Shown: one piece after another, positions 8,662 to 48,719 of the stretch
Position numbering within the stretch: position 1 is the stretch's first letter
Layout of the letters: the number at the start of each line of letters is the position of its first letter
Assembly (NCBI GenBank): GCA_028688935.1
Contig: JAQTXE010000001.1
Location: forward strand, 1 to 53,207
Length of the DNA: 53,207 nt
Source: Syntrophales bacterium
GTDB taxonomy: Bacteria; Desulfobacterota; Desulfobaccia; Desulfobaccales; 0-14-0-80-60-11
Direction: 5' to 3'
Made by a program: the position numbers and the translations under genes
Notes under the pieces: generated by a model
The model's input: the letters and a program-made list of their open reading frames with translations, nothing else
The model's database searches: none
Told to the model about the DNA's origin: nothing

Positions 8662-9660
8662 ATGGGAGCAATAAAAATCATGAGTCTAAATGGGCAAGAT
8701 ATGATTGATTTGATTCCCAAGAATCTCCAAATCCCGACGAGCGAGAGCATTAACTTTTGGAGAGCAAAACTTCTTGCTGCCATGATATTCGAAGTCGACC
8801 CTGATGTTGTCGGTCTTGTAGAAGCTCCTCCTGATGAAGACCGAACTCGAGCATTCGTAGATGGTTTTCTTGATGGAATATTCAATGTGCATCAAGCAGA
8901 AAAAAGAGGGGCATTAGGATTAGCCTTCTTAGTCCGAAAGACTGCAAATATTAGAGTTAACGTGCGGAGCAAGGATCAGAGTCTTAAGGATTTCAAGTTG
9001 GATGAGTTCGATTCCGACGGCGACGGGATTAGAGAGAAGTACACTTGGTGGAATCGTGTGCCTTTGGAAGCTGATTTTTCGGATGGCGGCCTCAAGGCAA
9101 AGACAACCTTCATCATAATTCACTCCAAGTCGAAGGGAGCGTTCATTCCAGGGGACCTATTTGCTTACGAACGGCTCTCGAAGGCAAACAGGATGAAGCT
9201 TCGTGCACAAGCGAATTCTGTCCGTAAAAGATTAAATCAACTGGTAGATGAAAATGGGAAGGGAAGAGTCGTTGTTATGGGGGATATGAATGACGGACCT
9301 GAGTTTGATATCCACGCAGCGCTTTTGGGTGGGTGTTTTTTAGAGCCTTTGATGGGAAGCATTTGGGACCCTGTGCGCATCTTCCACAACACGCATACAT
9401 CTTTTCCTACTAAAGACCGTTGGACCATTGATTTCCTTGATCGAGTGGTAAATCCACTTGGCTCTTCAAAATACGGCCAACCTTCAGAACTCAGGTCTTG
9501 GATTGACCATATCCTGGTGTCCCCCGAGCTAAAAAGCTCAGTGGTTCCGAATACCGCAGGAATCCTTCATAAGCAACCGAGTATTCTAGGGCTTCCCGGG
9601 AAGTTTAAAGGGGTAAGGGGCACAGACCATCATCCACCTTTTGTGGCTCTTGACCTGTGA
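8662..9660 (+). CDS. Endonuclease/exonuclease/phosphatase (EEP) family protein
   Basis: ATG 8662 is preceded by AAGGAGG (8649-8655); the track's 8491 start adds an unsupported extension. EEP motifs in order: IMSLNG, VGLVEAP, IIIHSKSKG, VVMGDMNDGPE, SWIDHILVS, GTDHHPPFVAL. Confidence 0.8.
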   Translation: MGAIKIMSLNGQDMIDLIPKNLQIPTSESINFWRAKLLAAMIFEVDPDVVGLVEAPPDEDRTRAFVDGFLDGIFNVHQAEKRGALGLAFLVRKTANIRVNVRSKDQSLKDFKLDEFDSDGDGIREKYTWWNRVPLEADFSDGGLKAKTTFIIIHSKSKGAFIPGDLFAYERLSKANRMKLRAQANSVRKRLNQLVDENGKGRVVVMGDMNDGPEFDIHAALLGGCFLEPLMGSIWDPVRIFHNTHTSFPTKDRWTIDFLDRVVNPLGSSKYGQPSELRSWIDHILVSPELKSSVVPNTAGILHKQPSILGLPGKFKGVRGTDHHPPFVALDL

Positions 9661-11531
9661 AAAAAGAACTTTTTGATTTGCAACGCTTTTATAAGGAGAT
9701 AAAGCAGATGCTGCTTTTGCAGGAACGGAAAGAACTAATTCGAATTCAAGATCAGCTTTCATCTCTTTCAAAAAGCCCTACTAAGATAACTGTTGAAGAT
9801 AACCGCAAATACTTTGACACACTGCGTGATGCATTTCGTCTTTTTGAAGATATCGTTTCCCGAGTAAATAAATCGGGGAGTGACCTTGATGGTGATGACA
9901 AGGAAAGCCTGTTTGGGACCATCGGCAATGCCATTATGGGGCTAGGTGGTGTTGCAGAGCCCTGCCCATATTCACTTAAGGATTATGACCATCTTGTTTT
10001 CGGGCCCTTCCTGGGTGTGAGTGATGAGGGAGGCGCAGTTCACGACATTCGGCGTGCAGCCATTAACTCTCCTAAGGTCCGTGCGCTCGGCACGGTCTCC
10101 CCAATTCAGGTCGGAGTTGCCCATGATGCGGAAAGGCTTGCGGCAGTTGGAGAGGTAGCTGTTGGGCCGGAGGAATATAGGGATATCATCCTGGGAAGTC
10201 AGGGCAGTATTCTTACCTCTACGAATGTTGGAACTAGGTTGAATCTACGCTACTACAAGATGCGGCCGATCCTTGGAATACCCGGAGGTTCTTTCGATGA
10301 TGCGATTAAAAATGCCACAAAAAAGCTCGGTGAACTTTTTTTGCCATTTTTGCAAACTCCGGACGGTAGGCCTAGACCTGTAACGGTGCTTGCTCGTTTT
10401 CCTATCAGGACACGATTCGCAAGGAGACTCCAAATCCTCAAGGCGCTAAATGCATCCATTGCCGGCAGTAGGTTCTGTGACCAGAGATGCCATAATTTGG
10501 GGCTTCTGGTTGATGTTTCAAGTGGGCAGAGGGGGTTGAATTTTGTAAAAGCCTCCATCGATCTGGCAAAGGAAGCAGGGATCACGGAGGTCGCAATACA
10601 AGGGCAAATCAGGTGGGAAGCTGAAAACAAGATCTCCATGCCTGGACTTCTAAATTACTTCCGGCCCGAACATGTCTCCGAGCTGATAGAATATGCCCAG
10701 AAAATAGGTGTGAGCTTGACCGCCAAAAATCTGGTAGATCCGGATACTGTGGCCCGAAATGTTTGGAGTAGCCTCCAGGCTGCGCGCAACATGGGCCTGC
10801 ACTTAGGCAAATACGGCTTGTTCCCGCTCACTTTCGAAGAATGTGATAAAGTTATGGGGCTTGTGCAGCGCTGGTTCTCTCATTGGTCGGCAGCTCCAGT
10901 CTTTTATCTGGATTTTCCACATATGAGCGAGAGCCATGTCTCCGCTGAAAAAGAAATTGATAAGGGTGCAAAAAGGTGGCTAGATATCGTTGCCAGGCAC
11001 GATATTCTAGTGGTTCTCCTCGACACCGCTGACAAAGATAAGGGGCGGAAATTGATCAAGAAAAGCCATGGAGACCGGGTCGGCATCTTAACCCTGGAGC
11101 AGCTTTCTGATATTGATCATTATGCGAATGAGCGGGGGATACGATGTCTGTGGGCCGGCGGCATAACGCTTCTGCAAGCCTTCGAACTTGGGAAGCTCAA
11201 GGTTTTTGGCATCTATGTGACCACTTCCACCGCAGAAATTCGACCCATCTCGGAACAATATGCCTCTGACCTCATGCTGACTGCCGAGAGAAAGCCGACT
11301 TTCCAGGGCGTTTATCGGGCCAAGGTTCTGCTGGAAGCTGGATTTCTGGTTACCCGCCTTAAGGAATTGAACCTACCTGCTGAGGCCGGGGCCCTCGATG
11401 AAGAGGCAACCAGACTGATCAGGATCATCGACAAAGCGGCCTCCGATGAACAAATAAACCCCATTGTGGAGCAAGTGGCTGGCCTTGCTCAAACTGCTTG
11501 GGCAAAGCATTTCAAAAGCCAGGTTGCCTAG
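9657..11531 (+). CDS. Uncharacterised 624-aa protein; C-terminal half TIM-barrel-like, with MfnB/DUF556-like motifs (tentative)
   Basis: GTG start overlaps the EEP stop (GTGA). Alternating beta/alpha pattern LGLLVDVSS / ITEVAIQG / VSLTAKNLVDPDTV...LHLGKYGL / PVFYLDF / ILVVLLDTADKDKG / IRCLWAGGI / VFGIYVTTS. The resemblance to DUF556 is from memory only. The N-terminal ~280 aa match nothing I recognise. Confidence 0.3.
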   Translation: MKKELFDLQRFYKEIKQMLLLQERKELIRIQDQLSSLSKSPTKITVEDNRKYFDTLRDAFRLFEDIVSRVNKSGSDLDGDDKESLFGTIGNAIMGLGGVAEPCPYSLKDYDHLVFGPFLGVSDEGGAVHDIRRAAINSPKVRALGTVSPIQVGVAHDAERLAAVGEVAVGPEEYRDIILGSQGSILTSTNVGTRLNLRYYKMRPILGIPGGSFDDAIKNATKKLGELFLPFLQTPDGRPRPVTVLARFPIRTRFARRLQILKALNASIAGSRFCDQRCHNLGLLVDVSSGQRGLNFVKASIDLAKEAGITEVAIQGQIRWEAENKISMPGLLNYFRPEHVSELIEYAQKIGVSLTAKNLVDPDTVARNVWSSLQAARNMGLHLGKYGLFPLTFEECDKVMGLVQRWFSHWSAAPVFYLDFPHMSESHVSAEKEIDKGAKRWLDIVARHDILVVLLDTADKDKGRKLIKKSHGDRVGILTLEQLSDIDHYANERGIRCLWAGGITLLQAFELGKLKVFGIYVTTSTAEIRPISEQYASDLMLTAERKPTFQGVYRAKVLLEAGFLVTRLKELNLPAEAGALDEEATRLIRIIDKAASDEQINPIVEQVAGLAQTAWAKHFKSQVA

Positions 11532-11574: not shown

Positions 11575-12405
11575 ATGACAAGAAAAGGGAAGAATCACCT
11601 AAAGGGTGCGCGGGTCTATCTCTCCGGCCCGATGGATTTTGTCGCCTCAAGGGCCAAGGAGAAGAAATTTGGCTGGCGCAACCGCATCGGTCAGTTCCTA
11701 AAGTCATATGGAGTTACCGTTTTTGATCCCTGGAATAAGCCGGCAATCAGAGGGCTTCTTGAATACGGCAAAGAAGATGAAAAGAGCGCGGAAGCCAGGA
11801 AAAAATGGACTTTCGACCCCGGAGAGAAGGGCATCCAGGCGAGAGGCGAATGTGCCTCGAATTTTTGGGAAACACTCCACATAGATCTAAGGATGGTGGA
11901 CATCAGCGATTTTGTCATCGCCTATTGCCCAACCAATATCTACAGCGTCGGCACGGTTCACGAAATCGTGGTAGCCAGGCAAGAGAGAAAACCTGTGCTT
12001 TTTGTCAGCCCCCCAGTCTCTTTTCCCACCTTGAAGGAGCTTGAAAAGGAGTTAGAGGGGCATCGCCAGGCCTTGAATCTGTTGAAAAAGCTCAAAGACG
12101 AACTTCCTGTAAAAGAGAACGAGCGTGGCATCCCCAGTTTATGGTATATGCCTCTGGTAAGCACTGAGGGCTTTTTCGATGGCTTCGGCTTCAATGACAA
12201 GAAGCACGCCAATAAGTTCAAATGGCAGATGGGATCGGAGCTTGACGAAAGGGAACTGAAATGCCCTCCCAGACGTCCATTGCTCCCATATTTAGAATCC
12301 ATCGCCTCTGGCGATTTCCCCAAAAAATGGGATCATCGGTCTAACAAGTTGATACTGAACGATGACTGGCTACTTATGGAGCAGGCATTGCAAATTGGGC
12401 CTTAA
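11575..12405 (+). CDS. Nucleoside 2-deoxyribosyltransferase-like superfamily protein (NDT/Rcl/DUF4406 clan) with ~120-aa C-terminal extension
   Basis: 276 aa. GARVYLSGPMDF...GWRNRIGQFLKSYGVTVFDPW, then DISDFVIAYCPTNIYSVGTVHEIVVARQERKPVLFV. This gives the glycine-rich first strand and the GT-x-x-E catalytic-Glu region typical of the clan. Confidence 0.55.
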   Translation: MTRKGKNHLKGARVYLSGPMDFVASRAKEKKFGWRNRIGQFLKSYGVTVFDPWNKPAIRGLLEYGKEDEKSAEARKKWTFDPGEKGIQARGECASNFWETLHIDLRMVDISDFVIAYCPTNIYSVGTVHEIVVARQERKPVLFVSPPVSFPTLKELEKELEGHRQALNLLKKLKDELPVKENERGIPSLWYMPLVSTEGFFDGFGFNDKKHANKFKWQMGSELDERELKCPPRRPLLPYLESIASGDFPKKWDHRSNKLILNDDWLLMEQALQIGP

Positions 12406-12539
12406 AAGCATTTTTTCCATAAGAGAGTTAACCTTCTTTATATTTGTATTATATTTAGATAAGGATTTTAATTATCAGTGGTTGATTGTACTGCATTTAT
12501 TTAGATATTTCTATGCATATCAGCAAGAGAGGAATTAGC

Positions 12540-13829
12540 ATGTACATCTTTGAAGTTAAAATTAGCAATATTATGAGTTTCGATGACATCACTTTATCAA
12601 TTGAAAATAGTAAAAGTCCTTGTTTCTGGAATGTTATCCTTGGAGATAATTCCACGGGCAAAAGCTCAGTCCTTAGGTGCATAGCCATAGGACTTTCTGA
12701 TCAAAATACTGCCGCCACGTTAATAAAATCTTGGGGTGCCGACCTCCTGAGAGATAATAATAAGCCTGGGAAGATTATTGTCACGCTTGGTAAAGAAGGT
12801 TCTGGTCCTTTATTTACAATAACAACAAGAATTATTCCAAAGTATTCTATGGAACTGGTGCAACCTAAAATAATACGTCCCAAGGAGTATGAAGCTTATT
12901 TTTGGAATGAGCTTTTCATCTGTGGTTATGGGATTCAAAGATCAGGTGGTGGCTCTGAAATTTCTCATAAATATTCACCTTTAGAAGCAGTTATGACTTT
13001 GTTTGATTATTACTATCCCATTCAAAATATAGAATTAATATTACATAGAATATCGAGGGAGAGACCAGACCGGGAAAATAAAATATTAACATTAATAAAA
13101 GAAGTACTCATGCTGGACGAAGATCAATCCATTATATTAACTCCAAAAGGCCTAAAGTTCATATTCGATGGTAGAGAAGTATTCCTTGATTATATAGGTG
13201 ATGGCTATTCTGGCACGGCAACCTGGCTTATCGATTTTTTGGGGTGGCAACTTTATGCTGATCGTATGAGTAAAGACCAACAACTATCGGATCTAGTAGG
13301 GATAATACTCTTAGATGAGCTCGAGTTAGCATTACATCCTAAGTTACAAAGAAATATTGTAAGGAATCTTAAGGAGCATTTTCCGAAAGTCCAGTTTATT
13401 GTGACAACTCATTCTCCCATAATCGCTGCTGGTGCGGCTGATTTTCAAGATGCACGACTTTTTCCTTTTAGACTTGACAAGGATAAGACAATATTAATCG
13501 AAGATATCCCTTCTTTAAGAGGCCGAAGTGTGGATCAAGTGCTTTCATCCATGGTATTCGGTATGTACATAACTCTAAGCCCTGGGAGCGTTAGTGACAT
13601 TGATCGATTCTCAGAACTGATGAGTAAGTCCCGAGACCAGAATGAAGAGACTGAATTTCAAAAATTAAGAAAAATTCTTGAAGACGCTATGCCAATTGGT
13701 ACTACTGAGGCTGAGAGGCTTGTAGAGAAAGCAATCCTTGATGCTTTGGAAAAACTGCTGAATGAGAAGCCTAGTAAAGACTTAGAGTTGATTATGAAGG
13801 ATAAACTAAATAAATTGGATAAATATTAG
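12540..13829 (+). CDS. ptuA: Septu-type AAA/ABC-like ATPase (PtuA-like)
   Basis: ATG 12540 with an AGAGAGGA RBS. Walker A ILGDNSTGKSSVL, Walker B/D-loop IILLDELELALHP, and IVTTHSPII. It is followed 10 nt later by an HNH gene, which is the Septu gene pair. Confidence 0.7.
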   Translation: MYIFEVKISNIMSFDDITLSIENSKSPCFWNVILGDNSTGKSSVLRCIAIGLSDQNTAATLIKSWGADLLRDNNKPGKIIVTLGKEGSGPLFTITTRIIPKYSMELVQPKIIRPKEYEAYFWNELFICGYGIQRSGGGSEISHKYSPLEAVMTLFDYYYPIQNIELILHRISRERPDRENKILTLIKEVLMLDEDQSIILTPKGLKFIFDGREVFLDYIGDGYSGTATWLIDFLGWQLYADRMSKDQQLSDLVGIILLDELELALHPKLQRNIVRNLKEHFPKVQFIVTTHSPIIAAGAADFQDARLFPFRLDKDKTILIEDIPSLRGRSVDQVLSSMVFGMYITLSPGSVSDIDRFSELMSKSRDQNEETEFQKLRKILEDAMPIGTTEAERLVEKAILDALEKLLNEKPSKDLELIMKDKLNKLDKY

Positions 13830-13839
13830 AAGGCCAGCG

Positions 13840-14685
13840 ATGGTTAAGATTGAGTTTAAAGAGCCAGATACGCCTGTGTGGAAAAGGTGGCGAAGGGATT
13901 GCGCTACTGCTACAACTAAAGTTGTTTCAGCTGTACGTGAGGGTGAAAAGCCTGACATTAGAAATATTTATAAAAGAGCGAATATCAAGCAATCATTTTA
14001 TATGTCGATTGATGGGCCTTTTCATGGTAAGTGCGCTTATTGCGAGACACTTATTGTTGCGGATCAGTATGGGGATATTGAGCATTTCAGACCAGCACGA
14101 GCAGTTACAGATGAACTTGGCAAGCCGATAACATTCACTAAGGGGCATGGTGAAGTTCTAGAACATCCTGGCTACTACTGGCTTGCATACGATATCAGCA
14201 ACCTGCTCCCTTCATGCGAATTGTGTAATAGGCCAAACCCTAAGGGAATTGAAGAGAATGTAGTTGGGAAGCATAATAAATTTCCTCTTAAACAAGGTTC
14301 ACATGCCACATCTCCTGGAAATGAAGCTAATGAGGAACCTCTGTTAATCAATCCAATCCATGAGAATCCAGAGAATCATCTGAAGGTGGATTTCAAAACG
14401 TTTATGTTTGGAGGGGATGATCGAGGTCAGTGTTGCATACGAATATTCGGTTTAAATATTCGACCTGGCTTAGCGGCAAACCGTCGGACTGCCTACCAAG
14501 CCACCCTATCATGTTTGAACAAGTACATAAACAGTGTAGACGAGAAAGAAACGAAAGAATGTTTAGACGAACTTTGTGACATCGTAGCGGGCAAGAAGCC
14601 CTATTCTTTTATTGGTAGGGCTATTATTAAGAGCAAATTTCCATCTTTTTTTGGAGATTTGGAAGGAATGGTCTCTTCTATATAA
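13840..14685 (+). CDS. ptuB: Septu-type HNH endonuclease (PtuB-like)
   Basis: 281 aa. HGKCAYCETLI...GDIEHFRPARAV...YYWLAYDISNLLPSCELCNR gives the CxxC...H...CxxC-N HNH core in the arrangement seen in PtuB / TIGR02646-type proteins. Confidence 0.7.
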   Translation: MVKIEFKEPDTPVWKRWRRDCATATTKVVSAVREGEKPDIRNIYKRANIKQSFYMSIDGPFHGKCAYCETLIVADQYGDIEHFRPARAVTDELGKPITFTKGHGEVLEHPGYYWLAYDISNLLPSCELCNRPNPKGIEENVVGKHNKFPLKQGSHATSPGNEANEEPLLINPIHENPENHLKVDFKTFMFGGDDRGQCCIRIFGLNIRPGLAANRRTAYQATLSCLNKYINSVDEKETKECLDELCDIVAGKKPYSFIGRAIIKSKFPSFFGDLEGMVSSI

Positions 14686-14703
14686 TTTAGTGTGTGAATT
14701 AAA

Positions 14704-15870
14704 ATGTCATTTTTAATTGATACTTATATAAGCAATGTTAAAAGTCCTGCATTCGTATATAATGAAAATGAGATTTTATCAAAAATAAATATAATAAAAA
14801 ATATAAGTAAATTAGCGTCATGCAAAATTTATTTCCCTTTGAAAGCGTTTTCCTTTCCCGATGCATTAAAATTCATGGGAGAATACATTGATGGTTTTTC
14901 AGCAAGTTCGTTGTTTGAGGCAAGATTAGCGTTTGAAATGATAAATGCTAAAGAGAAGTCGATTCATATTACATCTCCTTTTATAGTTGATGAGGAACTA
15001 TCTTCTGTCATTACATATTGTAATTCTATTTCATTTAACTCTTTGGGGCAATGGCAGAGACTTCGTGGAATGGCTAAAGATAAGATTAGTTGCGGTCTCA
15101 GGATAAATCCAGGAAGTTTGTTTGTTAAAGACGTTAGGTATGATCCGTGCAGAAGACATTCCAAGTTAGGTATTCCGATAAAAATACTATCATCAAATTT
15201 CAATAAACATTCTGATTGGATGGAAGGTGTTAGTGGATTACATTTTCATACTAACTGTGAGTCAACAAATTTTGGAGAATTATTGGCAACTGTTAATTTA
15301 ATATGCAAGCACCTTCCACAGGTTCTTGACAGAATTGACTGGATTAACATTGGAGGAGGTTATCTTTTTGAGTCTGAACAAGATTTTGAGCATTTTATAG
15401 AGGCTGTCCTATTCTTAAAAAAGAAATTCGATATCCAAGTTATTTTTGAACCTGGGAAAGGAATAATTGGACAAGCTGGCTCAATTGTTTCAACAGTTGT
15501 AGACATTTTTTTAAATGACGGGCATAACATAGCAATCCTTGACACAACCACAAACCACATGCCTGAGGTTTTTGAATATCAATTCAAGCCTGATGTTGCT
15601 CAGGAGTCCGATGAAGGAAAGTACTCTTATATATTGGCCGGATCTACCTGCCTGGCTGGGGATATATTCGGCGAGTACCGTTTTGACAAGCCACTGAAAA
15701 TAGGTTCACGGATAGTCTTTGAAAACATGGGCGCATACACGCTGGTCAAAGCCAATATGTTTAATGGCATCAATCTTCCGACGATTTATGCATACACCCA
15801 GGATGGGAAGCTCGAAATGAAAAGGCAATTTACCTACGACGATTTCCTGTCGCGATGCGGGGGCAGATAG
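14704..15870 (+). CDS. nspC: Carboxynorspermidine/carboxyspermidine decarboxylase-like PLP enzyme (NspC family)
   Basis: 388 aa. SPAFVYNE, YFPLKAFSF, SASSLFEARLA, GLRINPG, HSKLGI, GLHFHTNCES, INIGGGY, FEPGKGI, AGSTCLAGDIFGEY, FENMGAYT, FNGINLPTIY. This is the full motif series of the fold-type III CANSDC family. Confidence 0.8.
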   Translation: MSFLIDTYISNVKSPAFVYNENEILSKINIIKNISKLASCKIYFPLKAFSFPDALKFMGEYIDGFSASSLFEARLAFEMINAKEKSIHITSPFIVDEELSSVITYCNSISFNSLGQWQRLRGMAKDKISCGLRINPGSLFVKDVRYDPCRRHSKLGIPIKILSSNFNKHSDWMEGVSGLHFHTNCESTNFGELLATVNLICKHLPQVLDRIDWINIGGGYLFESEQDFEHFIEAVLFLKKKFDIQVIFEPGKGIIGQAGSIVSTVVDIFLNDGHNIAILDTTTNHMPEVFEYQFKPDVAQESDEGKYSYILAGSTCLAGDIFGEYRFDKPLKIGSRIVFENMGAYTLVKANMFNGINLPTIYAYTQDGKLEMKRQFTYDDFLSRCGGR

Positions 15871-15872
15871 CG

Positions 15873-17291
15873 ATGATTCTTTATGAAAAGGAAATTACGG
15901 TTCCGTTAGTCGGACACCATGAAAGGTTATTGGACCACCTATCGGAAGTAATTCTGGAGAGACTGCCCAGATCCGAGATACCCGTTCGAGTCGCGGTTAC
16001 GCTAACCGACGAGAAAGGCTACCATTGTGAGCTGGGCATCCTTTCTGGCGCTGACCATTTTTTCGATGAAATGAGAGGCGCTATTTTTCAGTTCCAGAGG
16101 AGGGGTTTCGAGAATACCGGGCAATTCAATGCAGTATTGATCGTTCCTACGGGGGTCGGGGCCGAAATAGGAGGACATTCAGGGGATGCGGGGTCTGTTG
16201 CCAGGCTTCTGGCTTCTGCTTGTGACAACCTGATCACCCATCCCAATGTGGTCAATGCGTCAGATATCAATGAGCTTCCTGAAAATGGGCTTTATGTTGA
16301 AGGAAGCGTGCTGGCCCGATTTCTAATGGGAACGGTCAGCCTCCAGAAGGTTAGAGCAAATAGAGTCCTTTTGGTCATAGACAAACATGCAGATAAGTTC
16401 TTCTATGAATCTGCCGTGAACTCGGCCTCGGCCGCCAGGTCCTCACTGGGCTTGGATTGTCCGGGGGTGGTAATGCTCGAAGATAAAATGCTGATGCGGT
16501 CGTTATATTCCAGTTCTGGAAGGGCGGTTGGCAAGATCGACTATTTCGAGCGCGTATATGATGTGTTGACGAAGTACCGTCCCCAGTATGACGCCGTTGC
16601 CCTGTCTTCCGTGATCAAAGTACCGGAGAATTTCCACACTGACTATTATCTCAAAGACATGATCAATCCCTGGGGAGGCGTGGAGGCCATGCTGACCCAC
16701 GCCATCTCTTTGATGTTTAATATTCCCTCGGCTCATTCTCCCATGTTGGAGACACGGCAAATACTGGACCTTGAGTTGGGAGTGATCGACCCCAGAAAGG
16801 CTGCGGAGATTGTCTCTGTGACCTTCCTGCATTCCATCCTTAAAGGTTTGCAAAAGAGTCCGAAGATATTGAATGGCATGGCGCCTCTCGGTTGTCCCGG
16901 GGTATTAACGGCAGCCGATGTCTCTTGTGTAATCATCCCGGACGGTTGCATGGGTCTGCCCATTCTTGCAGCCCTGGAACAAGGGATACCGGTCATCGCC
17001 GTGAGAGAAAACAAAAATAGAATGCGGAACAATCTCGAAGAGTTTCCTTTCGACACAGGGCGGCTTTTCTTGGTAGATAATTATCTTGAAGCGGTCGGGG
17101 TGATGAGCGCCCTCAAGGCAGGAGTCTCTGTGGAGTCGGTAAGACGACCGCTAAAATACACAAATGTCTATGAAGAAACGGCCTCCTGCGCCGCGAGAGA
17201 AACCAGCAAGAAGCCATTGAAGTTTGCGAAAGGAATTGATGATGTTGAAGAGGATTTACTCCGAAAGGAAGGAAGTAAGGCGGTCAGGTGA
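15873..17291 (+). CDS. DUF3326-like protein
   Basis: ATG 15873 lies 2 nt after the nspC stop. The motifs LIVPTGVGAEIGGHSGDAG and INPWGGVEA match my recollection of the DUF3326 signature. No known function. Confidence 0.5.
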   Translation: MILYEKEITVPLVGHHERLLDHLSEVILERLPRSEIPVRVAVTLTDEKGYHCELGILSGADHFFDEMRGAIFQFQRRGFENTGQFNAVLIVPTGVGAEIGGHSGDAGSVARLLASACDNLITHPNVVNASDINELPENGLYVEGSVLARFLMGTVSLQKVRANRVLLVIDKHADKFFYESAVNSASAARSSLGLDCPGVVMLEDKMLMRSLYSSSGRAVGKIDYFERVYDVLTKYRPQYDAVALSSVIKVPENFHTDYYLKDMINPWGGVEAMLTHAISLMFNIPSAHSPMLETRQILDLELGVIDPRKAAEIVSVTFLHSILKGLQKSPKILNGMAPLGCPGVLTAADVSCVIIPDGCMGLPILAALEQGIPVIAVRENKNRMRNNLEEFPFDTGRLFLVDNYLEAVGVMSALKAGVSVESVRRPLKYTNVYEETASCAARETSKKPLKFAKGIDDVEEDLLRKEGSKAVR

Positions 17292-18649
17292 CCATAGAGC
17301 GCGTTCTGATTGTTTCCTCGCCCACTTGCGAGAAGGATAAGACTCAAGCCGGCGTCGTATATCTTGCAACAGTATTGAAGGATCTGGGGCTGGAATTTGA
17401 CCTGCTCGATTTGAGTGGCACGATTGATTATTTTGACCCTCCAGAAGAATTTTTTTCACCATGTGATTCTGAGTTCTGGCGGTCCAGTCGTATTTTCAGC
17501 GATTTCACCTGGCTGGATCAACACCTGCCGACGACCTACGCTGAATATGACGCAGTTTTTTATTCGTCTCTTTTTTCCCCGGACATCCTCATCCAAGGTC
17601 GACACGCCCTAAATCAGAAACATCATTTCCCAAACAGCCTGTGCATTGTGGGGGGCAGCGCCCTATCGTGTCTTGATGATCAGCAACTATCTGTTGTCAC
17701 TTCAATATTTGACTTTGTCTGTACTGGATACGATATCCGGGAAATGATTTCTGCAATTCTTCAAGAGAAACCAAGACTTCCCAAAAGCGGGGTTGGAAAA
17801 CATATAAGAACCAATGGCAATGTGTTTGTTCAGCCTGATTACCGACTAGTTGATGTCCGGCGATTTGTTACTTCTTATTCCGGCCATGGCTGTGAATGGG
17901 GAAAGTGCAGATTCTGCAATAGTTCCTTAAACTGCGGAATCTTCTGCAGACCAATTCCTGAACTCATTGATGAGATTGAGCAACTTGCCGGTCTGAACGG
18001 AATGGTCAAAGACGTGATGCTCTCCTCTGACTCCTTCACCGAAGACTACCTGACCTCGCTCGCCTCCTCGCTATCCGACAGAAAGTCCAAGGTGCCATAC
18101 AACGTAATGCTTCGGGGAGAGAGGTGGGTTTCTAACGGACTCGGGGATAAACTGAGAAAATCCGGCTGCTCGGACGTCTTTATTGGTGCCGAGGCGTTGT
18201 GTGATGAAATACTGAGTGTCATGAACAAAGGTTTGAATACGTCCAGCATCCTTAACGCGATCAAGGCCCTATCTTCTCATGTGCAGGTCATTTTGGGACT
18301 AATACTGTTCGTGCCTGGTGTAACAGAAAAGCAACTGAATGAACAACTGCAAAATATCGAAAAAATACTTCCACATGTTAGCGCCATCGAACCAGAAATT
18401 TTAACGGTTATACAGAGAACGGAATTCGCTAAAGAACCAGGGAGATACGGCATACAACTTTGGGCGAAAGAGAAAGCGGTTAATGATAGTTGGTGTTACG
18501 GTTTGAGCCCAGACATACCATGGACGTTCACATCAGATAGAGATGCACGAACTTGGTTCAGATACTATGAAAAGCTCAGGAGACTTACACAAGGTTTCGT
18601 CGAACCTCACTATTGGGATTCCATCGATGAAGTTCAATCACGCTTTTAA
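17288..18649 (+). CDS. B12-binding-domain-like / radical-SAM-like protein with non-canonical CX4CX2C motif
   Basis: GTG start overlaps the upstream stop (GTGA). The N-terminal Rossmann-like RVLIVSSP...VVYLATVLKDLG resembles a class-B rSAM cobalamin domain. The Cys triad GHGCEWGKCRFC has codons at 17891, 17906 and 17915. Downstream are SSDSF and FIGAEALCDEIL. Confidence 0.55.
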   Translation: MTIERVLIVSSPTCEKDKTQAGVVYLATVLKDLGLEFDLLDLSGTIDYFDPPEEFFSPCDSEFWRSSRIFSDFTWLDQHLPTTYAEYDAVFYSSLFSPDILIQGRHALNQKHHFPNSLCIVGGSALSCLDDQQLSVVTSIFDFVCTGYDIREMISAILQEKPRLPKSGVGKHIRTNGNVFVQPDYRLVDVRRFVTSYSGHGCEWGKCRFCNSSLNCGIFCRPIPELIDEIEQLAGLNGMVKDVMLSSDSFTEDYLTSLASSLSDRKSKVPYNVMLRGERWVSNGLGDKLRKSGCSDVFIGAEALCDEILSVMNKGLNTSSILNAIKALSSHVQVILGLILFVPGVTEKQLNEQLQNIEKILPHVSAIEPEILTVIQRTEFAKEPGRYGIQLWAKEKAVNDSWCYGLSPDIPWTFTSDRDARTWFRYYEKLRRLTQGFVEPHYWDSIDEVQSRF

Positions 18650-18844: not shown

Positions 18845-21800
18845 ATGAAAACCGTTCGTGACGCCTGCCAAATACAGCCAAATGCATTATCCATCAGGCT
18901 CAGCGACCAGATAGAGCGGCTCGATGAGCTGATCGAGGTTGAGGGCGGTGGCTCCGTCTTTTTCGAGAAGACCCACATCACCCAAGGGATGCAGGACCTG
19001 ATCAGTGAGGGCATCGCACGCTTGGGGGGATTTTCGTCACAGGCAGTCTTCCACCTCAAACAGGCTATGGGTGGCGGTAAGACCCACTTGCTAATTGGCT
19101 TTGGGTTACTCGCCCGGCATCCGGAATTGCGCAAGAAATACTGTGGCGGGATGCTTCACGCGTCTGCCTTCCAGAGTGCAAAAATCGCTGCTTTTAATGG
19201 ACGGAACAGCCCACATCATTTCTTCTGGGGCGAAATCGCCAGCCAGCTTGGGAAGGCCGATCTATTCCAGGAGTTTTGGGCTTCCGGGCCGAAGGCACCG
19301 GACGAACAGGCGTGGATCAAACTTTTTGATGGCACTGATCCTGTGCTGATCCTATTGGATGAAATGCCGCCTTACCTTGAGGATTTGGCCACCCGACCAA
19401 TAGGCGCTGGCACTGTTGCAGACATAGCTACTCGGGCCTTTGCAAACCTGCTCACCGCCGCAGGCAAGAAATCAAATGTGTGTATAGTGATTTCTGACCT
19501 ATGGGCCGCATATCAATCGGGTGGAGCCTTAATCAATCGAGCCCTTGACAATGCTCGCCAGGAACTCGGTCGCCAGGAACGCAATATCACTCCGGTAGAC
19601 CTCGCTGCCAATGAAATCTACGACATCTTGCGTAAGCGTCTCTTCAAATCGCTCCCCGACAAGGCGAAGATCGCTGACATCTCCGCAGCCTTCGGCCGAA
19701 AGTTAGAAGAGGCAGCTAAGTCCAAGACCGCCAGTCGCGGCGCTGAGGCAATCGCTGATGAGATTGCCGCCACTTATCCATTTCATCCGCAGCTTAAACA
19801 CGTCATTGCCCTGTTCAAGGAGAACGAGCAGTTTAAGCAGACCCGCGGCCTCATTGAATTGGTTTCCCGTTTACTCAAATCTGTTTGGGAGCGGGCAGCC
19901 AACGATGTCTTCTTGATCGGTCCGCAGCATTTTGATCTTTCAATCCCCGAGGTCCGCGACAAGCTCACTGAAATCTCCGGGATGCGCGATGTCATAGCCA
20001 AAGATCTATGGGACGCACAGCAATCCGCACATGCCCAGGTCATCGACCTGCAGACCGGTAGGGAAGCCGCCACCCAGACTGGTGCCCTGCTCTTCACGGC
20101 CAGCCTCTCGACCGCTGTCAATGCAGTAAAGGGCCTGACGCGTGAAGAGATGGTCGAGTGCCTAGTCTCGCCACTACGCGAGCCTTCTGATTTTCTTGCT
20201 GCCTTCGAAGAGCTGGAGAAAGTGGCTTGGTACCTGCACCATACTCCAGAAGGCCGCTACTACTTCGATCGGCAGGAGAACCTCACAAAGCTCTTGCAGA
20301 GTCTGGCGCATGATGCACCGGAGAATCAGGTTGACGACCTCATTCGACACCGCCTGCGCGAGATGTTCAAACCGGTTCGCAAGACAGGGTATGAAGAGGT
20401 TTTGCCTTTGCCCAAGCTGGAGGATGTGGTTGACCGGGTGCGCAAGGGGCGCGTACTCCTCGTAGTGAGTCCCGATTCAAAAATCCCGCCGGAGGAAGTC
20501 AAGAAGTTCTTTGAAGGCCTCAGCCAGAAAAATAACCTGTGTGTGCTTACTGGCGAAAAAACGGCCATGGGCAGTGTGGAAAAGGCCGCTCGACACCTCT
20601 TTGCCGCGCAGAAGGCAGATGGGCGGATTCCTAAAGGCCATCCACAACGGGACGACCTCGAACGCAAGCAGCAGGGCTATGAACAGGATTTCAATTCCAC
20701 AATTCTTAATCTCTTCGACAAGGTTCTCTTCCCGATCCATCGTGCCGGTCGGGAACCCCAACTTGCTCCCAAAGCACTGGATATGACACGCGATGCCACT
20801 AAACCCTTTAACGGTGAGGAGCAGGTTGAGAAAACCTTAATTTCCAATCCCCTGAAGCTCTACCTTGATGTCGAGAAGGAGTTTGATGCTATCCGTGACA
20901 AGGCAGAGGATCTGTTGTGGCCTGAGAACCAAGAAGAAGCGCGTTGGTCTGATGTAGCAGACCGTTATGCAGAACAAGCCGGCATGGTATGGCTACCTCC
21001 CAAAGGCCTCGAAGCTCTCAAGGCCATCGCTTGCAACCGTGGGCTATGGGAGGACCTTGGCACTGGTTACGTCACGAAGAGTCCGAAGAAGAAGCGCACC
21101 TCTGTCCAAGTCATCACTGAGTCCGGGCCTGACGACGAAGGCAAGGTGCGCCTGCGCGTCAACCCGCAGAATGCCGGTCCTGCACCCAGGATTTATTATG
21201 CTGAAGATGTATCAGTTTCTGAAGAAAGTCCGCAGCTGACGGACCAAATTTACACTACGTCGGCGCTGCGCATGAACTTCATGGTCGTCGATCCTTCGGG
21301 TCAGTATGAGACGGGCGATCCGGTGACTTGGTCCAACAAGCTCGTCCTACGCAACCGGCTTTCGGAGCACGACGGGAAGCGCAGCGTTGAACTCTTCGTC
21401 GCTCCCCGGGGATTGATCCGGTATACGCTCGACGGCAGCGAGCCGCGCGACGGCACTTCCTACGAAGGCCCGATCGCCATTGGCGACGCCGAGGTCCTCC
21501 TGCGTGCCTTTGGCGAGGCGGAAGGGCTTGAGACCAAGGCCGAGTTCCGTTTCCAGGCCAAGGGCAAGAAGGGCGTTGAGATTGACGATGTGAAGCCCGC
21601 ACATCTCGTCTCACGCACCGGCCGCAAGCTCGACTCTCGGGGCAAGACCTTCGAGGGCCTCAAACAAGCCGCTGAGAAGAGCGCCACCTTCGAGGGCATC
21701 GTTCTCAATGTCGGTCAGGGCAACCAGATGATCGCCGTCAATGTGGGAGAAATTGCTGTGGAAGGAACCTTCATTGAGGCGCTACTCGTCAAGGTGCTGG

Positions 21801-21928
21801 AGAAATTCACCCCGGATACTCCGATCACCATGACCTTCCGCAAGGCCCACTTCTCCTCGGGTCATGACCTCAAGGATTTCGCCGGAAAGCTCGGCATCGA
21901 CTTGCAGCAAGGGGATGTCGAGCAGTGA
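18845..21928 (+). CDS. DUF499-family ATPase (anti-phage-associated)
   Basis: 1027 aa. FFEKTHITQGMQDLI...HLKQAMGGGKTHLLIG (Walker A) and VLILLDEMPPYLE (Walker B). Overall layout is typical of DUF499 proteins found with DUF1156 methylases. Confidence 0.7.
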   Translation: MKTVRDACQIQPNALSIRLSDQIERLDELIEVEGGGSVFFEKTHITQGMQDLISEGIARLGGFSSQAVFHLKQAMGGGKTHLLIGFGLLARHPELRKKYCGGMLHASAFQSAKIAAFNGRNSPHHFFWGEIASQLGKADLFQEFWASGPKAPDEQAWIKLFDGTDPVLILLDEMPPYLEDLATRPIGAGTVADIATRAFANLLTAAGKKSNVCIVISDLWAAYQSGGALINRALDNARQELGRQERNITPVDLAANEIYDILRKRLFKSLPDKAKIADISAAFGRKLEEAAKSKTASRGAEAIADEIAATYPFHPQLKHVIALFKENEQFKQTRGLIELVSRLLKSVWERAANDVFLIGPQHFDLSIPEVRDKLTEISGMRDVIAKDLWDAQQSAHAQVIDLQTGREAATQTGALLFTASLSTAVNAVKGLTREEMVECLVSPLREPSDFLAAFEELEKVAWYLHHTPEGRYYFDRQENLTKLLQSLAHDAPENQVDDLIRHRLREMFKPVRKTGYEEVLPLPKLEDVVDRVRKGRVLLVVSPDSKIPPEEVKKFFEGLSQKNNLCVLTGEKTAMGSVEKAARHLFAAQKADGRIPKGHPQRDDLERKQQGYEQDFNSTILNLFDKVLFPIHRAGREPQLAPKALDMTRDATKPFNGEEQVEKTLISNPLKLYLDVEKEFDAIRDKAEDLLWPENQEEARWSDVADRYAEQAGMVWLPPKGLEALKAIACNRGLWEDLGTGYVTKSPKKKRTSVQVITESGPDDEGKVRLRVNPQNAGPAPRIYYAEDVSVSEESPQLTDQIYTTSALRMNFMVVDPSGQYETGDPVTWSNKLVLRNRLSEHDGKRSVELFVAPRGLIRYTLDGSEPRDGTSYEGPIAIGDAEVLLRAFGEAEGLETKAEFRFQAKGKKGVEIDDVKPAHLVSRTGRKLDSRGKTFEGLKQAAEKSATFEGIVLNVGQGNQMIAVNVGEIAVEGTFIEALLVKVLEKFTPDTPITMTFRKAHFSSGHDLKDFAGKLGIDLQQGDVEQ

Positions 21929-22503
21929 GTGAGCAGAAGCCCGCAACCGTGGACTTCGGCGCGCCCGACAAATTCGGGGCGCATCTCTTCCGGGTGGAGA
22001 TTCCGGCCTCACGCCAGGAACCGGTGGTCATCATTGAGGACTACGGTTACCGCGGCCAGGAGGGCGGGATACCCCGGGAGGAAGCCCGCGTCGTCCTGCA
22101 ACGTCCCGTGTGGTCTGCCATAGCCGATATTGCCCGCCGTGAGTTTAACGATCGACTTAAGGCCGCCAAGGTCCTCACCGGGCGCTGGCACACTGGGACG
22201 AACCTGGTGGACCGCCTCCTGGGAAAAGAGCTATGCGTGCTCGCCTGGGCTGCGGAAACGGCCAGCTCGGAGCAACTTCCCATCATTTGTAGCAAGTGGG
22301 CGGCCCTGCGTCCGGAGGAGCGCTGGTGGCTCTTCTCCATGACGGTGGCCGAGGCCGGTCTGCCGGAGGACACCCAGCGCGGCTGGCGCCGGGCTCTGTT
22401 CCTGGCGCTCTCCGACGGTGAAAAGGCCGCCTCCCGGAAACGCCGGCCGCGCCCCGTGGATGAGTATCTGTTCAAATTGCCGCTGTTTGAGGACTCCCAA
22501 TGA
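21925..22503 (+). CDS. Small cassette protein, DUF3780-like
   Basis: 192 aa. GTGA overlap with the DUF499 gene and ATGA overlap with the methyltransferase gene. The position between DUF499 and DUF1156 genes matches the conserved cassette. The sequence-level call is weak. Confidence 0.45.
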   Translation: MSEQKPATVDFGAPDKFGAHLFRVEIPASRQEPVVIIEDYGYRGQEGGIPREEARVVLQRPVWSAIADIARREFNDRLKAAKVLTGRWHTGTNLVDRLLGKELCVLAWAAETASSEQLPIICSKWAALRPEERWWLFSMTVAEAGLPEDTQRGWRRALFLALSDGEKAASRKRRPRPVDEYLFKLPLFEDSQ

Positions 22504-25500
22504 GCGAAACCGTCATCCCGTTTTCACTCAAAGATGCGCCTGCGCTCATCGAACGGCTGCTGCCAGTCCAAAAGCTCTCAGCGGAGGCATATAAAGAACA
22601 GATGGCTGTGCAGAGCAAGACTCTTACTACGCTTGGTAGTTATTGGAAGGGACGTAAGCCGCTAATCCTTGCTAAGGCATGTATTCTTGGCTGCCTACTG
22701 CCAGCCACTACCGACCCAACCCGTGACCTAGAAATCTTCGAAAAGCTCATGGCGATGGACGATGAATCTTTTGCAGTCCGCTGGAAACGTCGCCCAAAGC
22801 CGAAAGAGATTCTCGCAACGCTATCCATCGCTCGCATTGCTGACTACTTTGTTATTGAGCCCGAAGGTATACTGCCGGCGTCGGCACCGGTGGATTCGTC
22901 CGATCCCGATTATGCCAAATTGAAGATTGCATGGCGCGAAGACCTTCTTGAGTTGGAACGCCGCCGTTTGGAAGCACAACTGCTGCCAAAAGTGCCTTAC
23001 CGGGAGCGCGTAGATCAGGCTAAACGAGCAGAAGAGGTCGCACCTAACGTCCATGACCATGTCTGGGATACGGCTAATACTCATTTAGGTACAAATGCGA
23101 ATTCGTTACCGGACTTGGTAGAGCAACTTGGCATCATGCGCTTTGGCCACCGGCCGCGCCTTGCCGACACCTTTTGCGGTTCCGGTCAGATTCCTTTTGA
23201 GGCGGCCAGGCTCGGTTGTGACGTTTATGCCTCCGAACTCAACCCGATAGCCTGCATGCTCACATGGGGTGCATTCAATATCGTCGGCGGATCTGAAGAG
23301 AGCCGAGAGAAGCTCGTAAAGGACCAGCAGGAACTTGTGCACAGTGTCCAAGCAGAGATCGACAAGCTTGGTGTCGAGACTGACGGTAATGGCTGGCGAG
23401 CCAAAGTGTTCCTCTACTGTATTGAGGTCCGTTGCCCCCAAACCGGATGGCGTGTGCCATTGCTGCCGAATTTCGTGATAAGCAAGAGCCGGATGGCGAT
23501 TGCTGAACTGGTGCCTGATCCCGAGACCAAACGATACGACATTGCGATTCGAACCGGGGTCAGCGAAGCAGAAATGAAGGCAGCAGAGCTAGGTACTATC
23601 GGCCGCGAAGGCAAGTATGGTGAAGCGTATCTAATACATCAAGTAAATGGAGTAAATTTTAAAACCAAGATTTCTACCTTGCGCGGTGATTACCAGAAGC
23701 CCGATGGAACAATAGGTAATCGCTTGCGGTTGTGGGAAAAACATGATTTTATGCCACGCCCCGAAGATCTATTGCAAGAGCGTCTTTATTGTATTCAATG
23801 GATGCGTCCCAAAAAGAAAGGTAAGGGGTTTGAGTATGAGTTTCGCTCCATTAATGAAGGCGATCTTCGACGAGATCGTATAGTTCAGGAATATATTGCC
23901 GAGCATTTGGGAGCCTGGCAGGCCAATGGGATTGTGCCGGACATGCGTATTGAAGTGGGTGGGCCACCACGGTACCAGGGCCTTGATTTAATCAGAGCAC
24001 GCGGTTGGACGCATTGGCATCATCTCTTCACCCCTCGTCAACTTTTGTATTTAGGTCTTGCCAAGAGCTATATCAACGAAAAAGCCAGATCAAAAGCTGC
24101 CTTGATAGTTTTCTTCGCTCGCTTGCTTGATTGGTCTTCCAAATTATGCCATTACGGAACAGGAGCTGCAAGAGAATCAATTGCTCATACTTTTTATAAT
24201 CAAGCCCTTAACACATTGTACAATTATGGAGTCCGACCGTTTTCCTTTGCGCAAAGTTATTTGCTAGAGAGACCTGCGCTACACTCATTGGCAACAAACA
24301 CAGAAGTTGCTACTATCCCGGCTGCCAATATTGATGATAGGTTCGATCTCTTCGTTACAGACCCACCTTACGGTGACGCAGTGAAGTACGAGGAGATTTT
24401 AGACTTCTTTATAGCCTGGCTACGCAAACACCCACCTACAGAATTTGCTGACTGGGTTTGGGACAGCCGTCGATCAATGGCCATCCAGGGGGAAGGAGAA
24501 GATTTCCGGCGTGGCATGGTGGCCGCCTACAAACGAATGACTGAGTGTATGCCGGCTAATGGTATCCAGGTCATCATGTTCACCCACCAGTCTGGCGCAA
24601 TCTGGGCCGATATGGCGAACATAGTCTGGGCCTCAGGTCTGCAAGTCACAGCTGCTTGGTATGTGGTCACGGAAACAGACAGCCCGTTACGCGAGGGCAG
24701 TCACGTCAAGGGCACCGTGCTGCTGGTCCTGCGCAAGCGCCAGGGAGCGCACAAAATCAACCGTGATGACTTGGCCTGGGAGATTCAAGAAGAAGTCGAG
24801 AACCAAGTCCAGGCGCTCACCGGGTTGAATCAGGAAGCCAAGGGATTATACCGCGACGAGAATGTTTTCGAGGATGCCGACATCCAGATGGCAGGCTACG
24901 CCGCCGCCTTGCGAGTGCTGACCCGCTATGCCATCATCGATGGCCGGGACATGACTGTCGAGGCACTGCGCCCCCGGGTGAAGGGGGAGACTACTTTCGT
25001 TGACGGACTTATCGCCTTTGCCGTGGACACCGCCAACCAAAGTCTGGTGCCCCAGGGCATCGCCGATGGACACTGGAAGAAGCTCAATGGCGCAGAGCGT
25101 TTTTATCTGAAGATGCTCGAAATGGAAGTCCGCGGTGCCAAGACGCTGGACAACTACCAGAATTTTGCCAAGGCATTTAAGGTGCGAGACTTCCGTGCAT
25201 TCCTTGGTGATCAGCGGGCCAACCATGCCCGGCTCAAGAGCGCCGTCGAATTTGCCCGCGCCGAAATGAGTGAGGGCTCGGAGTTCTATCAGTCCGTGCT
25301 GCGCGCCGTGCTCTATGCCGTGATGGAACTGCAAAATAATGTAGACGGAGAAGTGGTGCTGGCCCACCTGACCCTCAACATTCCCAACTACTATGCCGAC
25401 CTTACCCGGCGTGAGCTGGCCATCGAGTTGGCCGATTACCTGGCCAAGCGACTCGAAACCTTGCGGCCTGATGAAGCCAGCGCGGCGCGGGTGCTCTGCG

Positions 25501-25529: not shown

Positions 25530-25597
25530 GAAAAGCTGGCCCTGAGGAAATGGCTCAAATGGGTCAGCCGTCCGGATAGAACCAGAGGGAAGCCGAT

Positions 25598-30564: not shown

Positions 30565-30574
30565 GAGGAAGAAT

Positions 30575-48709: not shown

Positions 48710-48719
48710 GGAGGGCGCT

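Follow-up and report, generated by a model that had tools for sequence, protein, structure and literature searches.

Septu is among the commonest defence systems, and the control and triggering of its nuclease are only partly understood. In its canonical form (Doron 2018 type) it is a self-sufficient two-gene system of an ABC-type ATPase, PtuA, and an HNH nuclease, PtuB. The PtuAB pair acts as the nuclease effector, and both Septu and retron-Eco7 cleave tRNA-Tyr (PMC12819146, PMC12673091). In retron-Eco7/Ec78 the pair serves as the effector of a larger system, in which multicopy single-stranded DNA (msDNA) restrains it until infection (PMC12819146, PMC12673091, PMC12640716). Here, we analysed a Septu-like locus from the metagenome-assembled genome (MAG) of a Syntrophales bacterium; the window, i.e., the whole stretch of DNA analysed, is an entire contig of 53,207 bp. 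In this window ptuA and ptuB run directly into a gene for an NspC-like decarboxylase and a gene for a DUF3326 protein (these two are called the cassette below), followed by a radical S-adenosylmethionine (rSAM) gene. We give slightly better than even odds (a probability of about 0.55) that the locus is an undescribed Septu variant, carried by a phage-like element, in which the nuclease is coupled to a polyamine-like metabolite. Taken separately, it is likely that PtuAB and the cassette genes form a functional unit, and fairly probable, if somewhat less so, that the cassette makes a polyamine-like amine.

The block consists of five genes on the plus strand. The ATG start of ptuA (12540-13829) is preceded by AGAGAGGA, and a longer open reading frame (ORF) with a TTG start begins at 12486. 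The ptuB gene (13840-14685) starts 10 nt after ptuA and is followed by the nspC-like gene for a pyridoxal phosphate (PLP) decarboxylase (14704-15870) and by the DUF3326 gene (15873-17291), which in the NCBI call encodes 472 aa; if it began at the ATG that lies in frame at 15855, it would overlap nspC. The rSAM gene (17288-18649) begins with GTG, and this start shares the four letters GTGA with the stop of DUF3326. Read from the sequence at each junction, the intergenic distances are 10, 18, 2 and -4 nt; outside the block lie gaps of 134 nt (26.9% GC) and 195 nt. By consensus scan, no terminator-like site was found at any internal junction, and promoter- and terminator-like sites were not enriched in the block in comparison to shuffled sequences. 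A single promoter-like match (TTGGAA-16-TATAAT, 14659-14686) at the ptuB/nspC junction is at the chance level in AT-rich DNA. Searches of the window for Rfam families and for tRNAs found none, and thus gave no sign of a riboswitch or another RNA element in the gaps on either side of the block. Thus, the original prediction, which had described five co-oriented, tightly spaced genes between gaps of 134 and 195 nt with no hairpin terminator inside, was accurate on each of these points, and its identification of PtuA, PtuB, NspC-like, DUF3326 and rSAM proteins is confirmed by PADLOC, Pfam and NCBIfam matches. Its treatment of all five genes as one unit stands in part: four of them recur as a conserved core, while the rSAM gene is only an accessory and is missing from most PtuAB-linked loci. 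The conserved core is thus PtuA-PtuB-decarboxylase-DUF3326, and the whole unit probably comprises this core, one 3' accessory (rSAM) and two upstream members, a gene for a 624-aa protein and one for a nucleoside 2-deoxyribosyltransferase-like (NDT-like) protein, both described further below.

In order to see how often this arrangement occurs, an alignment of DUF3326 homologues was scanned against one genome per species and the best 80 loci were analysed (loci of all searches carry L numbers). PtuA, usually together with PtuB, was encoded directly upstream and on the same strand in 21 of the 80, and in all 21 PtuB was followed by a decarboxylase and DUF3326. These loci belong to Nitrospirota/Thermodesulfovibrionia, Zixibacteria, Planctomycetota, Marinimicrobia, Bacteroidota, Ignavibacteria, Binatia, Acidobacteriota and delta-proteobacterial MAGs, and overlaps between the ptuB stop and the decarboxylase start were seen repeatedly across phyla. 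As a reciprocal test, metagenomes were scanned with a PtuA alignment, and PtuA homologues from the protein database were looked up. In the metagenome scan, the cassette was present in every close relative with a sufficiently long contig (L081-L083, L085) and absent from all ordinary Septu loci; two relatives on short contigs (L086, L094) still showed a neighbour resembling MfnB, a 4-HFC-P synthase. The look-ups found the cassette in L170, L171, L173 and L176 and not in L172 and L175. The PtuA-seeded total, from small samples in which some contigs end inside the locus, is 8 of 10 evaluable clade members versus 0 of 16 ordinary Septu loci (Fisher p = 2.9e-5).

The PtuAB pair with a decarboxylase and DUF3326 on its 3' side is thus known from approximately 30 loci in approximately nine phyla, and these recurrence statistics rule out a chance juxtaposition of PtuAB and the enzymes. 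It had been proposed that the enzymes mark either a new Septu variant or separate cargo hitch-hiking on the Septu promoter, and that close PtuAB homologues should be checked for the same downstream genes. They do recur with the decarboxylase and DUF3326; the opposite pattern, in which the enzymes and Septu would each be found only apart from the other, was looked for and is not what the genomes show. Comparative genomics therefore favours a variant, by its recurrence and its own PtuA clade, and weakens hitch-hiking. We conclude that the association of PtuAB with the cassette is conserved, ancient and asymmetric. The cassette also lives without PtuAB, while PtuAB of this clade is rarely found without the cassette, which suggests that the nuclease uses or senses the product.

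The PtuA protein of the window matches the PADLOC PtuA model (5.3e-57) and the Pfam families AAA_15 (3.7e-17) and AAA_21 (8.8e-17), and its Walker A (G35-K41), Walker B (D259/E260) and H-loop (H291) residues are invariant or nearly so in the clade alignment. PtuB matches the PADLOC PtuB model (1e-43) and has zero matches in Pfam; its CxxC...CxxC pairs and HNH residues are conserved among 19 clade members. Judged by these sequence features, PtuA is an ABC-type (AAA_15/AAA_21) ATPase of a separate Septu-like clade, and PtuB is its HNH-type nuclease partner. With a hidden Markov model (HMM) of cassette-linked PtuA proteins, the members of the clade reach 375-499 bits and ordinary Septu PtuA proteins no more than 214 bits, and in the neighbour-joining tree the cassette-linked proteins form one clade apart from ordinary Septu, with the PtuA proteins of L172 and L175 nested within it as a single sub-lineage. 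The locus therefore resembles Septu in its ABC-type ATPase, its HNH nuclease encoded within 10 nt, its intact motifs and its position in a defence island of a mobile element. However, canonical Septu is complete with two genes, whereas the clade of the window is almost always accompanied by the decarboxylase and DUF3326 and often by an upstream MfnB-like gene. The likeness to retron-Eco7/Ec78 lies in PtuAB being the effector of something larger; the partner there is a reverse transcriptase (RT) with a non-coding RNA, while here it is a set of small-molecule enzymes. The NCBIfam cut-offs for retron-type PtuA and PtuB (NF041760/NF041761) were missed (98 versus 500 bits and 31 versus 150 bits, respectively), no RT gene was found among the neighbours of the block, and no retron RNA or other Rfam family was found in the window. 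In L172, the genes upstream of PtuAB are Mur-ligase-like and D-Ala-D-Ala-ligase/RimK-like, and those downstream are ORC/Cdc6-like and PRTase-CE genes.

The NspC-like protein matches the Pfam families Orn_DAP_Arg_deC and Orn_Arg_deC_N and scores 338.1 bits with TIGR01047, under the equivalog cut-off of 409.05. Its best PDB matches are structures of carboxynorspermidine and carboxyspermidine decarboxylases (CANSDC/CASDC; 9eaf 273, 36gy 231, 3n29 224 and 3mt1 195 bits), whereas structures of diaminopimelate decarboxylase (DapDC) or ornithine decarboxylase (ODC) score at most 52 bits. The match to CANSDC/CASDC is full-length, and the LKAFS, HFHT-CE, GGG, EPG and CLAGD motifs are kept. On the strength of these profiles and motifs, we assign the window enzyme to the NspC/CANSDC family of PLP-dependent carboxy(nor)spermidine decarboxylases. 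A decarboxylase is encoded next to DUF3326 in at least 65 of the 80 loci, as an NspC-like protein in 27 and as an AdoMetDC-like protein in 38, and the two types are mutually exclusive in these loci. The gene usually lies directly 5' of DUF3326, and in Dehalococcoidia it lies 3'. The AdoMetDC-like alternative is a protein of approximately 125 aa (AdoMet_dc, 5.6e-13) in which the Ser of the pyruvoyl precursor, a His and a Cys are invariant. Both types co-occur with PtuAB.

The second cassette protein matches PF11805 (DUF3326) at 6.4e-91 with 305.3 bits, versus a cut-off of 25, over profile positions 1-336 of 337, and carries an additional N-terminal domain of approximately 85 aa. Its homologues are 55-91% identical across phyla, which together with their patchy distribution indicates horizontal transfer. 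A clue to its function comes from the pavABC cluster, where a fold-III decarboxylase domain and the DUF3326 protein PavB are both required for formation of N-(5-aminopentyl)pentane-1,5-diamine (bioRxiv 10.64898/2026.06.12.731819). By analogy, DUF3326, the constant partner of the decarboxylase, is predicted to be a polyamine synthase that forms C-N bonds, and the product of the cassette is probably a triamine. The two loci share a fold-III (alanine-racemase-fold) PLP decarboxylase next to DUF3326. They differ in that PavA has an extra Rieske domain and the pav cluster a JmjC hydroxylase, and in that PtuAB, MfnB-like and rSAM genes are absent there; PavB and the window protein belong to one family. 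Moreover, pavABC is a toxin/secondary-metabolite cluster restricted to Burkholderia s.l. (bioRxiv 10.64898/2026.06.12.731819).

Two further routes to polyamines were compared with the cassette. The window resembles the pathway of carboxynorspermidine/carboxyspermidine dehydrogenase (CANSDH/CASDH) and NspC/CASDC in that the decarboxylase has a partner enzyme which might provide its substrate. However, no CANSDH/CASDH of the saccharopine-dehydrogenase type was found among the genes between 8491 and 28309, DUF3326 is unrelated to it in sequence and fold, and most loci related to the window use the pyruvoyl AdoMetDC-like protein instead. The second route is that of homologues of SpeD (AdoMetDC), which are proven ornithine or arginine decarboxylases, cluster with homospermidine synthase (HSS) genes and occur in phages (PMC10407285, PMC9992855). 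In both phages and bacteria, HSS genes in turn form clusters with glutathionylspermidine synthetase (PMC9992855). Like the pairs of an AdoMetDC-like gene and DUF3326, these clusters combine a small AdoMetDC-like decarboxylase with a triamine synthase in two genes, spread horizontally, occur in phages and show occasional linkage to glutathionylspermidine synthetase (PMC10407285, PMC9992855). The synthase there is, however, HSS or SpeY, an NAD-dependent enzyme of known fold, rather than DUF3326, and these clusters are not described beside defence nucleases. In three alphaproteobacterial loci (L038, L051, L066) the cassette adjoins a gene for glutathionylspermidine synthetase (GSP_synth).

Taken together, these comparisons suggest the following scheme. 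The decarboxylase would supply or finish an amine and DUF3326 would form the C-N bond, as in pavAB; alternatively, the pair might work in the manner of CANSDH/CANSDC. In the window the pathway would be extended by the rSAM protein as a tailoring enzyme, and probably also by the upstream MfnB-like/NDT-like pair. As to how the product might act, we suggest only tentatively that it regulates PtuAB as an off-signal. Steady production of the amine would keep PtuAB, or other effectors, silent; a fall in the amine during infection, whether through host shut-off, loss of precursors or capture by replicating or packaged phage DNA, would free the nuclease and lead to abortive infection. Copies of the cassette in phages could then be counter-defence genes which supply the keep-off metabolite. 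ATP restrains other PtuAB complexes, and the model is drawn by analogy with this and with restraint by retron msDNA.

A broader version of this idea, which we consider rather doubtful, is that the cassette is the signal-making half of a modular immunity in which a polyamine-type metabolite gates interchangeable effectors, namely PtuAB and the f8, f10, f33 and HDOD proteins, with phage copies as counter-defence. Genes for the latter four occupy the position of PtuAB on the 5' side of the decarboxylase and DUF3326 in other loci, which makes them candidate alternative effectors of the cassette. The f8 family consists of predicted multi-pass membrane proteins of approximately 300-400 aa (L004, L021, L022, L039, L040, L064, L067, L075). 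Proteins of the f10 family have 510-670 aa, a CHDLGY (HD-like) motif and no Pfam or PADLOC match (L003, L008-L010, L014, L036, L044); f33 is a class III cyclase-TPR protein (L041, L052, L076, L167), and the HDOD/HD protein occurs in L025 and L026. In the DUF3326 tree, loci with PtuAB, f8, f10, f33, HDOD or the glutathionylspermidine synthetase homologue as the upstream partner are interleaved, which indicates that the cassette is a mobile module recombining with different partners.

Among metagenomic viral contigs in IMG/VR (31 contigs, L136-L166), an AdoMetDC-like gene lies right beside DUF3326 in 27-29 of the 31, and no PtuA was found beside DUF3326 in any of them. The pair looks like an unrecognised viral polyamine module. 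Some of these contigs reach 100-180 kb, their DUF3326 proteins are short (approximately 330 aa), and one of them, L147, adds an rSAM homologue upstream. A search for DUF3326 in GenBank records of cultured phages and in PLSDB plasmids gave no match.

The strongest rival explanation, unlikely in our estimate, is that the enzymes, together with the MfnB-like and NDT-like proteins, form a biosynthetic or defence operon of their own, into which an autonomous Septu was inserted so that only the promoter is shared. Several observations weigh against a coupling of PtuAB to the cassette, and a part of them speak directly for such an embedding. Septu is documented inside other systems, between Hma genes (bioRxiv 10.1101/2024.01.29.577857). 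In the window, a segment of low GC (12390-15438, GC 0.27-0.41 versus 0.44-0.50 in the flanks) covers ptuA (0.37), ptuB (0.41) and the 5' two thirds of nspC (0.32 in its 5' part), while the 3' end of nspC, DUF3326 and rSAM have 0.44-0.50 and the genes for the 624-aa and NDT-like proteins 0.49. The related locus L135 has flanks 85-89% identical to the window in nucleotide sequence, and between them PtuA and PtuB that are only 29% and 28% identical in protein sequence, although they are still clade members. The breakpoints of this swap lie near 12389 and 15439 and coincide with the GC break. The ptuA-ptuB-5'nspC segment thus behaves as a swappable cassette, and a distinct composition combined with such a swap would also be expected of an independently embedded system. 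The same slot upstream of the enzymes is filled by f8, f10, f33 and HDOD elsewhere. The enzymes occur without PtuAB in L168 and L169 (in housekeeping-like settings), in L167 (with another partner) and in the 31 viral contigs, so that the dependence is one-sided and the coupling is not mutual. Two PtuAB pairs of the clade (L172, 7001-9119; L175, 7001-9186) have no decarboxylase or DUF3326 within 7 kb, and our trees are neighbour-joining trees without support values. With respect to the metabolite, the biochemical role of DUF3326 derives from one preprint on the family member PavB, and comparison of the DUF3326 model with PDB and BFVD gave only weak, partial flavodoxin-like or lumazine-synthase-like matches.

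Against embedding, on the other hand, stands the distribution of the combination. Embedded systems are normally common outside the system that hosts them, and only 0.7% of Septu lie in Hma (bioRxiv 10.1101/2024.01.29.577857); here, PtuA of the clade was found with the cassette in 8 of 10 independent cases and in all 21 DUF3326-seeded loci, and ordinary Septu never was. In most loci PtuAB lies at the 5' edge of the cassette and not between conserved genes. The swap breakpoint falls inside nspC, so that the 5' part of the decarboxylase gene moves with PtuAB. The overlaps of the ptuB stop with the decarboxylase start, which recur across phyla, also argue against embedding.

We regard as improbable a second alternative, according to which the enzymes are the effector arm: upon infection they would convert an essential amine, amino acid or S-adenosylmethionine into a useless or toxic polyamine analogue and so starve the phage of spermidine-type polyamines, with PtuAB as the sensor or a second, independent effector. 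Viruses do need spermidine, and many encode polyamine enzymes (PMC9992855); in Pseudomonas, phage replication is affected by the intracellular levels of polyamines (PMC9992862), AdoMetDC-like and DUF3326 genes are present as a pair on viral contigs, and pavettamine, which is made with a DUF3326 enzyme, is a toxin. However, in the characterised systems it is PtuAB that is the effector, cleaving tRNA-Tyr, and the membrane and HD-like proteins which replace it are effector-like as well, rather than sensor-like. The housekeeping-like contexts of the cassette also argue against a toxic product.

Still less probable is self-marking, in which the enzymes would place an amine modification on host DNA or RNA to protect it from PtuAB cleavage, in the manner of the Dnd/Dpd modification modules. 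PLP and radical-SAM enzymes take part in the amine hypermodification of phage DNA, and the block of the window includes an rSAM gene and a gene for the NDT-like, i.e., base- or nucleoside-handling, protein. Yet none of the core proteins was recognised as a transferase able to load an amine onto nucleic acid, most PtuAB-linked loci lack the NDT-like and rSAM genes, and the cassette also pairs with membrane and HD-like proteins or occurs alone in phages and in housekeeping contexts. Finally, that the locus is a non-immune polyamine operon with a housekeeping or regulatory ABC-ATPase/HNH pair in an incidental defence setting is very improbable: the cassette does occur beside glnA/PII/amt, ribosomal protein, GSP-synthetase and DUF350 genes, but PtuA (5e-57) and PtuB (1e-43) match Septu models, PtuAB-linked loci lie on a prophage and near restriction-modification (R-M), Hma-like, SIR2, integrase, relaxase and transposase genes, and the 55-91% identity across phyla with a patchy distribution points to horizontal transfer.

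The variant reading, i.e., Septu coupled to a polyamine-like metabolite, was also compared with what has been described. A literature search found no paper in which polyamine enzymes, DUF3326 or MfnB are connected to Septu or PtuA, and none that describes the system. PADLOC v2.0 has no models for the decarboxylases or for the DUF3326, rSAM, MfnB-like, f17, f8, f10, f33 and HDOD proteins. The Hma paper of Payne et al. (bioRxiv 10.1101/2024.01.29.577857) reports that Septu is often embedded in Hma or co-localised with it. As far as its text and supplementary tables are searchable, they do not mention DUF3326, Orn_DAP_Arg_deC, AdoMet_dc or 4HFCP_synth, and the combination is not among the candidates of that study. 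If the variant reading is true, this would be the second natural case, after retron-Eco7, of PtuAB as a plug-in effector, and the first one tied to a small metabolite and not to a nucleic acid. Should the product regulate effectors, immunity gated by metabolites would emerge as a new class, and phage counter-defence would gain a new arena; under the modular reading given above, a polyamine would serve as a messenger of immunity or as a small-molecule antitoxin, and signals of this kind are not known from prokaryotic immunity. Should it not do so, the locus would still define a new and compact route to polyamines, as well as a hot spot of recombination at which defence genes become embedded. 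In either case, it offers a handle on DUF3326, a large family with thousands of members, also in cyanobacteria and plants, for which the 2026 preprint on PavB is the sole functional clue, and it brings to light the AdoMetDC-like and DUF3326 pair as a widespread two-gene module of uncultivated phages and defence islands.

An attempt to read the mechanism of DUF3326 from its fold failed. The AlphaFold2 model has a pLDDT (predicted local distance difference test) of 74.5, its structural neighbours were uninformative, and a profile search of PDB sequences with DUF3326 returned nothing. In other settings devoid of PtuAB, the cassette was found beside glnA/PII/amt or beside ribosomal protein genes (L168, L169). 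NspC-like and DUF3326 genes also recur with genes for DUF350 and YjfM-like proteins and a 475-aa protein (L011, L018, L019, L042, L043, L056, L058, L068, L069, L074). This neighbourhood, which occurs in Dehalococcoidia and some Planctomycetota and also includes a protein of approximately 1000 aa that looks SecA/DEAD-like by eye, is possibly related to envelope stress or polyamine conjugation.

The rSAM protein matches Radical_SAM (PF04055) at 5.7e-10, with 40.1 bits versus a cut-off of 29.5. Residues C202, C207 and C210 are invariant and form a Cx4Cx2C motif, not the canonical Cx3Cx2C (residues 201-210, window 17888-17917). Matches to NCBIfam families of B12-dependent rSAM enzymes (class B) are weak (at most 49 bits versus cut-offs of at least 360), and the B12-binding domain PF02310 is annotated in only two distant homologues. 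The family is small, with 104 database matches, and adjoins DUF3326 in L134, L135, L167, L168, L169 and the viral L147. As a core member the rSAM protein was rejected, being absent from most PtuAB-linked loci; it is an accessory which travels with DUF3326, probably as a tailoring enzyme of the module.

On the other side of the block, a gene for an EEP-family nuclease/phosphatase (8491-9660) overlaps by 4 nt the start of the gene for the 624-aa protein (9657-11531, plus strand), whose C-terminal TIM-barrel domain is MfnB-like (4-HFC-P synthase-like), and the gene for the NDT-like protein follows (11575-12405, plus strand). The 624-aa protein reaches 17.8 bits with 4HFCP_synth (PF04476), under the cut-off of 22.4. 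BLAST and HMM searches failed to link it to the MfnB-like family, and only profile-profile comparison found a link, a moderate one, between its C-terminal part and the stand-alone MfnB-like family f5 (hhalign probability 85.5%, E 5.7e-6). The f5 family has a match of 5.6e-38 to PF04476, and its genes lie beside PtuA in approximately two thirds of the loci, often divergently and paired with a gene for a 394-aa protein. The NDT-like protein matches Nuc_deoxyrib_tr at 3.5e-5, under the cut-off. Its relation to the f17 family was not supported (hhalign probability 0.4%), the shared local motif being seen only by eye.

In the closest relatives of the window, L134 and L135, whose DUF3326 is 91% identical, the 624-aa and NDT-like proteins precede PtuA as in the window, with syntenic genes and identities of 83-84% and 92-93%, respectively. 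The two are fused in L134 into one 891-aa protein, and the EEP protein is kept together with them there. An NDT-like homologue (60% identity) begins 5 nt after DUF3326 in L037. We conclude that the MfnB-like 624-aa gene and the NDT-like gene are probably upstream members of the system. In L111, a homologue of the 624-aa protein and a 61% identical NDT-like homologue lie beside a SIR2-PtuA fusion (1278 aa) and PtuB, with no DUF3326, so that the pair could be a separate two-gene defence module.

The contig as a whole looks like a temperate phage or a phage-plasmid-like element, in which defence genes occupy a cargo region with replication modules on one side and packaging on the other. The former side encodes ParB (199-1350), the DNA polymerase III beta subunit (1478-2608), a Gp3-like recombination directionality factor (RDF; 2680-3801), a DUF2800/PD-(D/E)XK protein (3971-5110) and, on the minus strand, a ResIII/DEAD helicase (5094-8348). 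The latter encodes a portal protein with a Mu-F domain (28456-30564), a prohead protease (30506-31699) and the major capsid protein (31712-32944), and further on a lysozyme/amidase (48639-49994). Directly 3' of the ptuA-rSAM block lies a complete four-gene Hma-like system (18845-28309) of a DUF499 (HmaC-like) ATPase, a DUF3780 protein, a DUF1156 methyltransferase and a PLD-SNF2 helicase, with near-full-length PADLOC matches. In this position immediately upstream of an Hma-like system, the block resembles the Hma-embedded systems of Payne et al. (bioRxiv 10.1101/2024.01.29.577857) and agrees with their report that Septu tends to lie within or next to Hma. Helicases or methylases homologous to those of this system also adjoin DUF3326 cassettes in L009, L013, L016, L060, L075 and L173, and the neighbours of related loci include SNF2/PLD helicases, methyltransferases, type III R-M genes, SIR2, integrases, a relaxase and a transposase. 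At the end of the contig, a second low-GC patch (0.42) contains a gene (50960-52156) for a 398-aa protein with the CTD7 domain of ABC-three-component (ABC-3C) conflict systems.

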